Source: an uncultured Acidimicrobiia bacterium (GTDB lineage: Bacteria; Actinomycetota; Acidimicrobiia; Acidimicrobiales; JACDCH01). From it: a DNA stretch of 64,000 bases. The position numbers and the translations under genes were made by a program. The stretch is taken from the NCBI GenBank assembly GCA_963721305.1, contig CAVRIR010000006.1:119224-183223 (forward strand), read 5' to 3'. This document shows positions 39,563-52,561 of the stretch, one piece after another. Below the pieces are notes generated by a model. The model was not told the DNA's origin. It ran no database searches and saw only the letters and a list, made by a program, of their open reading frames with translations. The first letter of the stretch is position 1, and the number at the start of each line of letters is the position of its first letter.

Positions 39563-39582
39563 GACTTTGCGCCTACCGATCA

Positions 39583-42500
39583 GCCTGTCACCGGCACTGC
39601 CACAGGTGTGATCGGGCTCGGGGGGGCGACGGGCGCGGCGCGAACGATCATTGTCGCCTCCACGGCGGGCGCGGCGTCACCGTTCGGACCGACGCCAGAG
39701 ACGGTCGCGACGTTCGTGATGCTCCCGCCCGCGACGTCCGCCGGCGTGGTCGTGTAGGTGGCCGTGCACGTCATGGACGCGGCCGGCGCGAGCGTCGTGC
39801 TCGGGCACGTGACCGCCGACAGGCCCGGCATCGGGTCCGTCACCATCACGTCGGTCAACGTGACGTTGCCGGTGTTGGTGACGACGAAGCTGTAGGTGAC
39901 GAGTTGGTCCGCCGCTGTCACCACGCTCGGGTCGGCCGTCTTCACCATCGTGAGGGCCGCGGTCTGGGTGACGGACGCGGTGGCCGACGATGGCGGCGAC
40001 TCGGTCGCGCCTCCGCCGGGGAGGGTGCCGCTGGCGACGGCAGTGTTCGCGATCGATGACCCGGCGTCGATGTCGGCCTGGGTGACGGTGTAGGTCGCGG
40101 TGCAGTCGACACTGGCACCGGGCGCCGAGCGGACCGGTCGGGCAGGTGGCCACCGGCGGAGTCCCGGTGCCGGAGAACGCGGTCTCGTCGATGGCGATCG
40201 CGCTCACGGTGACGTTGCCGGTGTTGGTCACATGGAACGTGTAGGTGACCACCGCACCGGCGGCATCGACGGTGGCCGGGCTGGCCGTCTTCACCATCGT
40301 GAGCGCCGCGGTCTGGGTGGCGGGCACGGTGGCCGTCGACGGCGGCGACTCGATCGCGCCCCCGCTGGTGATGGTGCCGGTGGCGATGGCGGTGTTGGTG
40401 ATCGAGCCGGCGTCGATGTCGGCCTGGGTGACGGTGTAGGTCGCGGTGCAGTCCTCACTGTCACCGGGCGCCAGCGCGGTCGAGCGGGCAGGTGGCCGTG
40501 GGCGGTGCCGGTGCCGGAGAACGCCGTCTCGTCGATGGCGATGGCGCTCACGGTCACGTTGCCGGTGTTGGTCACATGGAACGTGTACGTGACCACGTCA
40601 CCCGACCGCAGCGACCGTCGTCGGGCTGGCCGACTTCACCATCGTGAGCGCCGGGCTCTGGGTGGCAGGCACCGTGGCCGTCGACGGCGGCGACACCGGC
40701 GCGAGCGCGCCGGCCGGCGGCGTGCCGGTCGCGGTCGCGGTGTTGGTGATCGACCCGGCATCGATGTCGGCCTGGGTGACGGTGTAGGTCGCGGTGCAGT
40801 CCACGCTCGCGCCCGGCGCCAGCGGACCCGGCGGGCACGTGACCACCGGCGCGGTGCCGGAGCCGGAGAACGCCGTCTCGTCGATGGCGATGGCGCTCAC
40901 GGTCACGTTGCCGGTGTTGGTCACATGGAACGTGTACGTGACCGCGTCACCGACCGCGGCGACCGTCGTCGGGCTGGCCGACTTCACCACCGTGAGCGCC
41001 GGGGTCTGCGTCGCGGGCACCGTGATCGATGACGGCGGCGAGTCGACCGCCTCGTCGGCTGGGAGTCGTGCCGCTCCGGTCGCGGTGTTGGTGATCGACC
41101 CGGCATCGATGTCGGCCTGGGTGACGGTGTAGGTCGCCGTGCAGTCCACACTCGTCGCCCGGCGCGAGCGGGCCCGGCGGGCACGTGGCCACCGGCGGGG
41201 TGCCGGTGCCGGTGAACGCCGTCTCGTCGATGGCGATGGCGCTCACCGTGACGTTGCCGGTGTTGGTCACATGGAACGTGTACGTGACCACGTCACCGAC
41301 CGCGGCGACCGTCGTCGGGCTGGCCGACTTCACCAGCGTGAGCGCCGGGGTCTGCGTCGACAGGCACCGTCGCCGACGACGGCGGCGACACCGGCGGCGT
41401 GACTCCCGCCGGCGGCGTCGCCGGTCGCAGTCGCAGTGTTGGCGATCGACCCGGCATCGATGTCGGCCTGGGTGACGGTGTAGGTCGCCGTGCAGTCCAC
41501 ACTCGTCGCCCGGCGCCAGCGAGCCCGGCGGGCACGTGGCCACCGGCGGCGTCGCCAGTGCCGGAGAACGCCGTCTCGTCGATGGCGATGGTCGCTCACC
41601 GTCACGTTGCCGGTGTTGGTCACATGGAACGTGTACGTGACCACGTCACCGACCGCGGCGACCGTCGTCGGGCTGGCCGACTTCACCATCGTGAGCGCCG
41701 GCGTCTGCGTGACAGGCACGGTCGCCGACGACGGCGGCGACACCGGCGGCGTGACTCCCAACGGCGGCGTCGCCGGTCGCAGTCGCAGTGTTGGCGATCG
41801 ACCCGGCATCGATGTCGGCCTGGGTGACGGTGTAGGTCGCCGTGCAGTCTGACACTCGCCGCCGGCGAACGAGGGCTCCGGCGGGCAGGTGGCCACCGGC
41901 GGCGTGCCAGTGCCGGAGAACGCCGTCTCGTCGATGGCGATGGCGCTCACCGTGACGTTGCCGGTGTTGGTCACGAGGAACGTGTACGTGACCACATCAC
42001 CGGGCCCGGTCACCGTCGCCGGGCTGGCCGACTTCACCATCGTGAGAGCCGGGGTCCGGGTCGCCGGCACGGTCAAGCTCGACTGGTCGCTGACATCCGC
42101 CCCGGTCGGCGGCGTGCCGGTGGCGGTGCCGGTGTTGGTGATGCTGCCCCGGTCCACATCCTCCTGGCTGGTGACGTAGGTCGCGGTGCACGTCTCTTGC
42201 TGGGTTGGTGCGACGGCGGACACCGGGCAGTTCACCGCCGAGAGGCCAGGCATCGGATCGAACACGACGACAGGGTCGAGCGTCACGTTGCCCGGGTTCG
42301 TGACCTGATAGCTGTACGTGATCGTCGTACCTGCAGCCGAGAAGCTCGACGGATTGGACGCCTTCGACAGGGTGATGGCCGGGATCTGCAACGCGGGCAC
42401 GGTGACGGACGCCTGCTCGACGACGCGTCTGCCCGAGTGGTCCCTCCGCGGTGACGGTTCCCGTATTCGTGATGCTCCCGCGGTCGACGTCCGCCTGGGT

Positions 42501-51045: not shown

Positions 51046-52561
51046 CGTGCAGGTCTGCACGCTCGACGAGTTGTTGTCTGCGTTCGGATCAGCCTCGTTG
51101 CCGGTCACCGTGGCGGTGTTCGTGACGCAGGTGCCGTTGGTGGAGGGTGCCCTGCCGCTCAGCGTGATCGTGAAGGTGCCACCGTTCGCCAGCGCCGCCT
51201 CGGCGCACTGGACGTTGTTGCCGGCGACCGTGCAGCCGGGGGTGGGCGAGGTCACGTTGGTCACGCCCGCCGGGACGGCATCGTTCACCGCGAAACCCGA
51301 GCTGTTGCCCGGGCCGTTGTTGGTCACCGTCAGCGTCCAGGTGATGGTGGCGCCCGGGCTGACCACAGCTGGCCCCGTCTTGGCGATGCCCATGTCCGCG
51401 GATGGCGATGTGCAAGAGGCGCCATCGTTGGCTTGCGTCGTCCGCCCCGAGTACGTCGACACGACGGTGAACGTCGGGTTGACGCTCGCCGGGTTCGTGA
51501 CGGCGATCTGGTACACGTTGCCGTTGCCGTTGCTGGCGAACGTGAGGTTGCCGTTGCCCAGGGTCCACGCCGCCCCCCAGTTGCTGTTCGGCGTGAGGCC
51601 CGACGACCGTGAACGTCCCGATCGCACCAGTGGTCAGGTTCAGCCGGTCGATGGTTCTGCTGTTGGTCTCGAGTCCCCACATGAACCCGCCGCTCGCGGT
51701 GAAGTCGGCCGGTTCCCAGGCCTGGGTGAGCGTGAGCGTCCTGGTCACCGTCCGCGTGGCGACGTCGACCTGGTACACCTTCCTGGTCGCGGTACTCCCG
51801 TTCGCGCTGACCACACCGAGCGTCACCCAGAACGTGGCCCCCGGTGCGCTGTCGTCGAACGCCCCGACGTAGTAGGCCCCTGAAGTCCCGGTCGGGTCCG
51901 GTAAACCGCTGATCGTGCCGAGATCGGTTGCTCCGCCGTTGCTGTCGATCTTCACCAGATCGTCGGTGCCGGTCTGGATGGCGTACAGGTAGTTGTCGTT
52001 GGGGTTGTAACCGACGCGCGTTGTACGACAGGGACGCCCTTGGCCCGAGCGGCGAGAAGGTCACGGAGCCGGCTCCGTAGGCGGAGGAGTACAGCTGGGT
52101 GTTGCTGTTGGCCGCAGGCGTGTTCTCCGACATGAACGCGGTCGCGGTGGCGCAGGTGAACGCTGGACCGACAGCAGCAGACGCCGGCGGAGTTGCCCCG
52201 AAGTTGGTCGCGACGGTGGTCAACACCGTCAGCGAGGCGAGGAGGGCGCGGGCCAAGACCGCGCGCCGATGAGGTCGCAGTCGCGGTCGCCCCGTCATGG
52301 GCCCGCTAGGCGGGGAGGCCTCGGCGAACGACGTCCTGCTCTCGTCGGCACGGGCGCTCGTCGTGCCGGAGCGCAATTCATCAAGAAGGGAGGATAATCA
52401 CCCAAACCGCGCGTGTCATCGACGGAGTCGAACCCACCTCATACGGTGGTCGGCGACAAACCGAGACCCTGCAACCCTGCGATCCTGCGGCGAGTCAAGC
52501 GTCGTGGCTCGACAACCGGTGTCAACCGGCCCGGGCGGGACGCCGGCGATGACGGTCTGTG

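Follow-up and report, generated by a model that had tools for sequence, protein, structure and literature searches.

The window, i.e., the whole stretch of 64,000 nucleotides analysed here, carries on its minus strand a giant repeat-protein gene whose reading frame is broken throughout by about one hundred one-base indels. On the evidence of sequence comparison, these indels are very probably errors of the assembly consensus, lying over a gene that is intact in the organism. The product is a fibrillar-adhesin-like protein, probably secreted, with a putative signal peptide, a DUF6923 head, one CLIPPER domain and a stalk of 34 CLIPPER_2 domains. The features of the gene and its surroundings are:

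39580..52298, minus strand: gene of the giant, probably secreted repeat protein, ~4,226 codons once frame-corrected, ~51 sense pieces as assembled
52170..52298 (approximate), minus strand: putative N-terminal signal peptide with RR motif, MTGRPRLRPHRRAVLARALLASLTVLTTVATNFGATPPASA, assigned by inspection
51408..52133 (approximate), minus strand: DUF6923 head domain, Pfam PF21959, E 2e-63, residues 56-296
51054..51396 (approximate), minus strand: single DUF11/CLIPPER domain, Pfam PF01345, E 1.4e-19, residues 301-414
39650..51045, minus strand: DUF7507/CLIPPER_2 array (PF24346), 34 units of 110-117 aa
39580..39649, minus strand: Pro-rich C-terminal tail and TGA stop
40125..53017, no strand: zone of one-base indel noise, ~100 events in 12.9 kb, from the comparison with relatives
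52563..55308 (stop approximate), minus strand: P-type cation ATPase gene, last ~170 codons broken
39092..39562, minus strand: downstream gene of a 156-aa lipoprotein, intact, position conserved in the relative L010
38316..39098, minus strand: downstream gene of a YkuD-type L,D-transpeptidase lipoprotein, intact, position conserved in L010

The sequence-only reading had traced the gene from ATG 52298 to TGA 39580 and described an RR signal peptide, a non-repeat head, one DUF11 domain and 34 Ig-like repeats. Both ends and the domain order are confirmed, the domains by Pfam, and inspection shows a putative signal peptide (positively charged RR n-region, hydrophobic core, A-S-A site). The DUF11-like assignment also stands, with Pfam matches to PF01345 and PF24346, although the repeats are more precisely DUF7507/CLIPPER_2, a sister family of DUF11. 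A three-unit in-frame piece matches PF24346 with an E-value of 4.2e-90 (297 bits, cut-off 27 bits), and a second match to the same family is found at the C-terminus. The DUF6923 head is predicted to be all-beta and propeller-like from the AF2 model of the homologue P0017, and it would be the binding tip. In the three frames checked, no C-terminal anchor (LPXTG/sortase signal, transmembrane segment or OmpA-like domain) is recognisable, and the terminal DNA of the gene is identical in L010. The protein may be released, or otherwise held.

The repeat units are ~56 % identical to each other at the protein level. Once frame-corrected, all 34 contain the C-T-A-T-Y motif, spaced 110-117 aa apart, and a Lys column (VK-S/T-A) and an Asn column (xxNT) are invariant in 34/34 units. 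The acidic column of the triad is the Asp of a V-T-D-P motif, or D-E in units 28-33. In the CLIPPER fold family, a Lys-Asp-Asn triad forms a stabilising intramolecular isopeptide bond (PMC12617251). The stalk units retain this triad, and formation of the bond is suggested by membership of the fold family. Tandem Repeats Finder reports two arrays, 43114-50932 (period 332, 66 % matches) and 39927-42073 (period 346, 88 % matches). Units 28-33 form a younger sub-family, with DNA ~88 % identical.

As assembled, the gene is readable only by hopping between frames, as had been claimed. The GC3 frame plot and the codon-usage Viterbi path alike show ~54 frame switches over 39584-52262, separating 51 sense pieces. 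The intervals between Cys motifs in the raw DNA are 329-352 nt, and only 11 of the 31 are multiples of three, in line with the spacing first described. The two double shifts described earlier, at 49,630-49,690 and 49,960-50,000, are paired one-base insertions (49670/49650 and 49972/49964). The earlier counts fare less well: a tally of about 30 indels is too low, as comparison with relatives gives ~100, and the statement that every unit has at least one indel fails for one Cys-to-Cys interval with none.

Within the noise zone insertions outnumber deletions by ~2.5:1. The indels are not associated with homopolymers (insertions stand next to the same base in 16/62 cases, vs 40 % by chance), and no preferred site within the repeat unit was found, as they are spread evenly over unit positions. 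Plotted along the zone, their density forms a bell, with its peak at 45-48 kb and its lowest values at the edges of the array. Units 28-33, which resemble each other most closely (88 % identity), belong to the less affected ones. The breaks also extend beyond the repeats, with two in the unique head and two in the neighbouring gene. Those in the DUF6923 head are one-base insertions at 52015 and ~51603-51605, while in the ATPase gene the frame shifts at ~53,017 (deletion) and ~52,733 (insertion), both of which are one-base gaps against the sister assemblies L007 and L009. The noise overruns 720 nt into the non-repetitive ATPase gene. The indel rate is ~0.8 % within the zone vs roughly 0 in the 51 kb outside it. 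Except for the pair in the ATPase gene, these 51 kb of flanks yielded no convincing frameshift, and the rate of about one indel per 10 kb previously given for the flanks was an overestimate. A candidate at ~19,192 was rejected, as two complete chromate-transporter domains lie there in two ORFs, with no demonstrated break.

Between functional orthologues, length differences are expected in multiples of three. The comparison used three orthologues, collinear with the gene of the window and taken from other metagenome assemblies. The alignment with L001 (11.4 kb at 87.6 % identity) contains 188 gap events, 173 of 1 nt, 12 of 2 nt and only 2 of 3 nt, and against L010 109 of the 115 gap events within the gene are of 1 nt. 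The frame switches of the window coincide with these gaps: 51/54 lie at most 30 nt (median 4 nt) from a gap vs L010 whose length is not a multiple of three, compared with 21.4 +/- 3.8 for random positions. The sequence-only reading had proposed a search for intact orthologues, and the syntenic relative L009/L010 does keep long open ORFs across the broken stretches, of 1253, 487, 1033 and 475 codons opposite ~60 frame-breaking indels of the window. The indels are of one base, most of them occur in a single assembly, and the intact ORFs of the orthologue lack them.

These comparisons also bear on the idea that expression depends on slippage, i.e., on repeated programmed frameshifting by the ribosome or on slippage during transcription. 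Its sole support is that sense protein resumes beyond every break. The break sites have heterogeneous contexts without a common motif, neither homopolymeric nor slippery; they are uniform over unit positions, +1 and -1 events are both present, and two events lie in the unrelated ATPase gene. In the intact ORFs of L010 the events are absent at the same positions, which are in frame there, and the orthologues have no conserved slippery motif at conserved positions in common. We know of no system with ~100 recoding events in one gene. The results contradict the slippage idea, which we give practically no probability.

The frame could be restored. Choosing among gap columns, together with 8 further fixes at gapless columns, yields 3,693 stop-free codons, and with the tail added the corrected gene has 4,226 codons and 34 regular units without a stop. 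A union sequence, in which every base of the window or of L001 is kept, i.e., all errors are assumed to be deletions, was rejected: it contains 50 stops and does not restore an ORF. The errors are mostly insertions. A three-way majority consensus of the window, L001 and L007 has 15 frame switches, compared with 18-25 in the single sequences, and the residual switches are likely due to ambiguity of gap placement and to some shared indels.

The substitutions show a coding sequence without relaxed selection. dN/dS is 0.27 vs L001 and 0.29 vs L009, and substitutions private to the window fall on codon positions 1:2:3 in proportions of 24:19:57 %, with other branches alike. No nonsense codon is present, while 7.4 would be expected were the private substitutions neutral. 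Neither a neutral substitution pattern nor nonsense mutations thus accompany the frameshifts. This contradicts the suggestion of a decaying adhesin, i.e., a true pseudogene in this lineage that has accumulated ~100 real one-base indels. Such decay would fit the frame breaks in the deposited sequence, the frequent loss or degradation of giant repeat adhesins, the fragmentation of the gene in the relatives L001 and L007 as well, and the fact that some indels are common to different assemblies. However, besides the signs of selection, the catalytic triad and the Cys motif are kept in 34/34 units, ~100 indels per 334 private substitutions is an indel share far above that of natural decay, the noise reaches into the ATPase gene, and L010 retains ORFs of at least 1,000 codons. 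Indels common to two assemblies at the same site are a minority, and they are distributed evenly across all three sequence pairs, which is incompatible with any phylogeny. In L001 and L007, moreover, the housekeeping flanks are noisy too: the ATPase gene of L007 contains ~20 one-base insertions, and the arginine deiminase of this assembly is called as two pieces (the OTCase is called whole). We consider genuine decay very unlikely. As some indels are shared by two assemblies, unlike purely random error, some context dependence of the errors must be assumed.

An assembly error thus explains the data best, and consensus or polishing failure, one of the explanations first offered, is supported by the single-base gaps, the open ORFs in relatives and the intact selection. 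The contig would come from a long-read metagenome assembly. The names of the relatives' contigs ('contig_NNNNN') and their ENA assembly accessions point to long-read metagenome assemblies of the Flye type, and one published pipeline of such a kind runs Flye and then one round of Medaka (PMC12313526). We suggest that too few reads could be placed reliably for polishing in this patch, so that indel noise at the level of the reads would be kept in the consensus. Poor read support could have two reasons: the region evolves fast and has a long, internally repetitive sequence, and co-occurring strains probably differ in it. Two observations run counter to this: so sharp a confinement of the noise is unusual and has no mechanistic explanation, and insertion-biased, homopolymer-independent errors are unlike the textbook nanopore pattern.

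The failure had originally been placed inside a tandem array, and this holds only in part: the array is noisy, but the noise also affects the unique head and extends over 720 nt of the ATPase gene. Reads from within the array might be misplaced or discarded as multi-mapping, so that the repeats per se would defeat polishing. The bell-shaped indel density is as expected from a declining coverage by flank-anchored reads, and in the sister assembly L008 the flanks are clean while a 6.5-kb noisy block lies within the array, ahead of an intact ORF of >1,540 codons. On the other hand, units with ~56 % protein identity and 66 % TRF DNA matches should allow long reads to be placed uniquely, the most similar units are not the noisiest, and non-repetitive sequence lies inside the zone. 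In L009 the equivalent patch is in the non-repetitive ATPase gene, with ~30 one-base insertions, while the OTCase and the start of the giant gene are clean. This narrower cause is possible but somewhat doubtful. As the giant gene is the noisy part in L008 also, a property of the array may contribute.

Alternatively, the indels could be real and recent, produced by a mutational process aimed at the locus, or the consensus could blend a population of differently broken copies. Error-prone repair or replication through the long GC-rich array would then have peppered the 12.9-kb patch, and other places in the relatives, too recently for selection to leave a trace. We regard this as exceedingly unlikely. 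A further idea, in which an insertion arises where both alleles of a polymorphic site are kept in tandem, was rejected: a few hand-picked cases seemed persuasive, but in the systematic test 7/78 insertions fit it, vs 5.9 +/- 2.3 in controls.

With the consensus-error reading, a contig that is clean over 51 kb can conceal a 13-kb patch with an indel error of ~0.8 %. Gene callers render such a patch as dozens of 'hypothetical' fragments or as a false pseudogene, and quality scores based on single-copy markers are blind to it. In catalogues of long-read metagenomes, the number of giant adhesins may therefore be too low, or such genes may be taken for decayed ones. Artefact and decay can be told apart without reads, from the indel lengths vs orthologues, the codon positions of private substitutions and the nonsense count.

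Genes fragmented by indels are known from long-read-only assemblies (Nat Methods 2022, PMC9262707; PMC12313526). As there, ORFs are split by one-base indels that are private to an assembly, and housekeeping genes of sister contigs are hit. However, classic nanopore errors are genome-wide homopolymer deletions, while those of the window are insertion-biased, independent of homopolymers and limited to a 12.9-kb patch.

Structurally, a beta-propeller-like head on a leg of Ig-like domains recalls the integrin alpha ectodomain, as an analogy only. The top Foldseek matches of the P0017 model are integrin alpha chains, with TM-scores of only ~0.2 and ~10 % identity, values at which homology or a shared function with integrin alpha is unsupported.

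Giant CLIPPER-type stalk proteins have already been described, and this one stands out only by its 34 units, its DUF6923 tip and the absence of a recognisable anchor. The fibrillar adhesins with CLIPPER/CLIPPER_2 stalks (Protein Sci 2025, PMC12617251) share with the window protein the CnaA-like Ig domains in tandem, with matches to PF24346 and PF01345 and with the Lys/Asp/Asn triad and a Cys pair in each unit, a long stalk behind an N-terminal domain without repeats, an unusual length and an Actinomycetota-like genome. The window protein differs in its 34 CLIPPER_2 units, its DUF6923 tip and the lack of a recognisable C-terminal anchor, and its isopeptide bonds are predicted. An identical domain order, DUF6923-DUF11-DUF7507, is found in a set of shorter 'TIGR01451 repeat proteins' of Actinomycetota, for example P0062 (LPXTG-anchored) and P0087 (Ruania rhizosphaerae). 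Their heads are 37-59 % identical to that of the window protein over 90-99 % of its length. The listed proteins are, however, shorter than 900 aa and some are LPXTG-anchored, whereas the window protein has no anchor and carries ~10x more stalk units.

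The reading frame of the giant repeat surface protein gene is broken along nearly its whole length. A GC3 frame plot and a codon-usage Viterbi path (seven states, trained on the long ORFs outside the region) agree that the minus-strand frame changes about 54 times over 39584-52262. The path yields 51 sense pieces, none with an in-frame stop. In the raw DNA the conserved Cys motif recurs at intervals of 329-352 nt, and the interval is a multiple of three in only 11 of 31 cases. The plot, the path and the motif spacing together confirm the broken frames described in the sequence-only reading. 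Beyond the region, the path tracks ordinary gene boundaries, except for two breaks within the last ~170 codons of the P-type ATPase gene next door, which three-frame reading confirms. Since the breaks are limited to the giant gene and the 3' end of the ATPase gene, 53,017-40,125 is a discrete noisy zone in a clean contig. The features concerned, in a window with a GC content of 65-72 %, are:

52298, minus strand: ATG of the giant gene, opening the signal-peptide-like sequence MTGRPRLRPHRRAVLARALLASLTVLTTVATNFGATPPASA
39580, minus strand: TGA of the giant gene
43114-50932: tandem array, period 332 (Tandem Repeats Finder)
39927-42073: tandem array, period 346, the younger of the two (Tandem Repeats Finder)
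52563-55308, minus strand: P-type cation ATPase gene, with breaks at ~53,017 and ~52,733

Searching proteins with the conceptual head gave matches to fragments of close relatives, whose contigs were then retrieved. From contig names and ENA assembly accessions, these look like Flye-type long-read metagenome assemblies (one published pipeline of this general type runs Flye and then a single Medaka round, PMC12313526):

L001, ERZ25039457 contig_56637: collinear over 11.4 kb at 87.6 % identity, upstream context differs; noise throughout
L007, ERZ25039557 contig_42426: syntenic, contig stops within the array; noise throughout
L009/L010, ERZ25039558 contig_115488: synteny on either flank, 91 % identity over 20.8 kb, gene likewise 12.7 kb; long intact ORFs in the giant gene, ATPase with noise
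L008, ERZ25039465 contig_60565: more remote homologue at 57 % identity; flanks clean, noisy block within the array

Upstream of the L001 orthologue lie PRK, MFS and TetR genes (L001 1-10,000), while L007 and L009 keep the synteny of the window. In the L001 genome the giant gene is either relocated or a close paralogue.

Alignment to these relatives shows that the breaks are almost entirely one-base events. Against L001, 173 of the 188 gap events measure 1 nt, 12 measure 2 nt and only 2 measure 3 nt. Inside the gene, the comparison with L010 gives 115 events, 78 with one base more in the window and 31 with one base less; only 3 are of 3 nt. Of the 54 frame switches, 51 have a gap against L010 that is not a multiple of three no farther than 30 nt away (median distance 4 nt), compared with 21.4 +/- 3.8 for random positions (maximum 31 in 500 trials). 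The two ATPase frameshifts likewise coincide with one-base gaps, against both L007 and L009.

Dynamic programming over the alignment of the window with L001, in which any gap column could be freely retained or discarded while every other correction was heavily penalised, returned 3,693 stop-free sense codons at the price of just 8 such corrections. By this solution, 62 insertions and 31 deletions belong to the window, and 81 insertions and 24 deletions to L001. In L009/L010 the giant gene contains ORFs of 1253, 487, 1033 and 475 codons, each with matches to CLIPPER_2 (DUF7507), and across these intact ORFs the window has ~60 frame-breaking differences of one or two bases. The 17 that fall in the first 3.76 kb coincide with sites that the L001 comparison had already charged to the window (52015, 51603, 50738, 50468, 50265, 50222, 49972, 49964 and onward). 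In the last 540 nt the situation is reversed: the window is in sense and L010 is broken.

Genuine decay, one of the three causes proposed from the sequence, is rejected by the substitutions. dN/dS is 0.27 against L001 (3,637 codons) and 0.29 against L009 (1,246 codons). Private substitutions, assigned to branches by an odd-one-out rule, are dominated by third positions, with codon positions 1:2:3 at 24:19:57 % in the window (n=334), 27:17:55 % in L001 and 26:22:53 % in L010. The private changes of the window create 0 stops, against 7.4 expected if neutral; one apparent stop is a site where the ORF of L009 is itself no longer in the sense frame. Every one of the 34 repeat units retains its Lys, acidic and Asn columns and the CTATY motif. 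About 100 indels beside 334 substitutions that are still constrained rule out natural decay. The second biological proposal, expression that depends on slippage, is rejected as well, and the frame breaks do not reflect the biology of the gene.

Insertions outnumber deletions in the window by ~2.5 to 1, and only 16 of 62 insertions adjoin an identical base, compared with 40 % expected by chance. Events are evenly distributed over unit positions, and their density along the gene is bell-shaped, rising from 1-4 per kb near 51-52 kb to 14 per kb at 45-47 kb and falling back to 4-6 per kb at 41-42 kb. A minority are common to two assemblies at the same site. As these are spread evenly over all three assembly pairs, inheritance is ruled out, and they suggest some dependence on sequence context. 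The 11-mer TCTCC[G]AGCTT carries the same inserted G in two different units (window 49673 and 47005), several other insertions stand in similar contexts, e.g. GTC[G]AC (positions also 50222, 47937 and 47409), and some window insertions are also found in L007 at the orthologous site. All three observations suggest that part of the noise is tied to sequence context. The idea that an insertion represents two alleles in tandem failed a systematic test.

Similar patches occur elsewhere in the relatives. The L007 ATPase gene has ~20 one-base, non-homopolymer insertions; its arginine deiminase is called as two pieces and its OTCase whole. In L009, ~30 one-base insertions are packed inside the ATPase gene, at L009 11,031-13,282 (window 55,276-53,046), while the OTCase gene and the giant gene up to codon 1253 are clean. 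The end of this patch nearly coincides with the start of the noisy zone in the window, which, if it has any meaning, might mark for example a strain-variable breakpoint. The L008 contig (264 kb) is clean in the flanks, but within the array, at 11,830-18,318, ~45 frame switches crowd into 6.5 kb, followed by an intact ORF of >1,540 codons. Patches of this kind are therefore a recurrent feature of giant CLIPPER_2 genes in these assemblies. Patches in the window, L007, L009 and L008 make patchy one-base indel noise a property of the assembly set, its location differing by contig.

Consensus or polishing failure, the first explanation in the sequence-only reading, is therefore supported. The patch probably arose by polishing with too little well-placed read support over a long, internally repetitive and fast-evolving region. 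Mis-mapping between repeats does not by itself account for it fully: protein identity between the units is only ~56 %, the noisy zone reaches ~720 nt past the giant gene into the unique sequence of the ATPase 3' end, and the comparable L009 patch lies in a non-repetitive gene.

The surroundings of the gene include:

38316-39562, minus strand: immediately 3' of the giant gene, a 156-aa lipoprotein without a Pfam match and then a lipoprotein of the YkuD L,D-transpeptidase type
32611-33831 and ~58298-59530: two arginine deiminase genes
33872 to ~34800: carbamate kinase gene
55302-56309: ornithine carbamoyltransferase gene

Genes of the arginine deiminase pathway are duplicated around the locus (32611-35035 and 55302-59530). 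An apparent break at ~19,192 is formed by two overlapping ORFs (18557-19731, plus strand), each with a complete chromate-transporter domain (PF02417). These represent either two half-size ChrA genes or a single fused gene with a broken frame.

In the conceptual protein, Pfam identifies DUF6923 (PF21959) at residues 56-296 (E 2e-63) and DUF11 (PF01345) at residues 301-414 (E 1.4e-19), and the repeats match DUF7507 (PF24346), at E 4e-90 for a piece that spans three units in frame. Frame correction brings out 34 units, spaced 110-117 aa, with a mean pairwise protein identity of 56 %. The C-terminus has neither an LPXTG motif nor a membrane anchor, and ends instead in a Pro-rich tail (window 39580-39650); the terminal DNA is identical in L010 (~17,100-17,155). 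The downstream lipoprotein and YkuD L,D-transpeptidase are arranged in the same way in L010, and it can be speculated that they hold the fibre at the wall. The AlphaFold model of a homologue, P0017, is confident at residues 140-610 (mostly pLDDT >90) and consists of an all-beta head, after which come two Ig-like domains. The PDB structures it matches best are the ectodomains of integrin alpha chains (a propeller carried on Ig legs), with TM-scores of only ~0.2.

A 2025 survey renamed DUF11 as CLIPPER and DUF7507 as CLIPPER_2, CnaA-like Ig domains that build the stalks of fibrillar adhesins and are stabilised by a Lys-Asn isopeptide bond with Asp as catalyst, as demonstrated in the crystal structure of one CLIPPER domain (PMC12617251). 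Judged from its family, the giant protein is likely a secreted fibre of ~34 Ig domains that carries a propeller-like tip, and the gene beneath the frame breaks is a further member of this already known kind.
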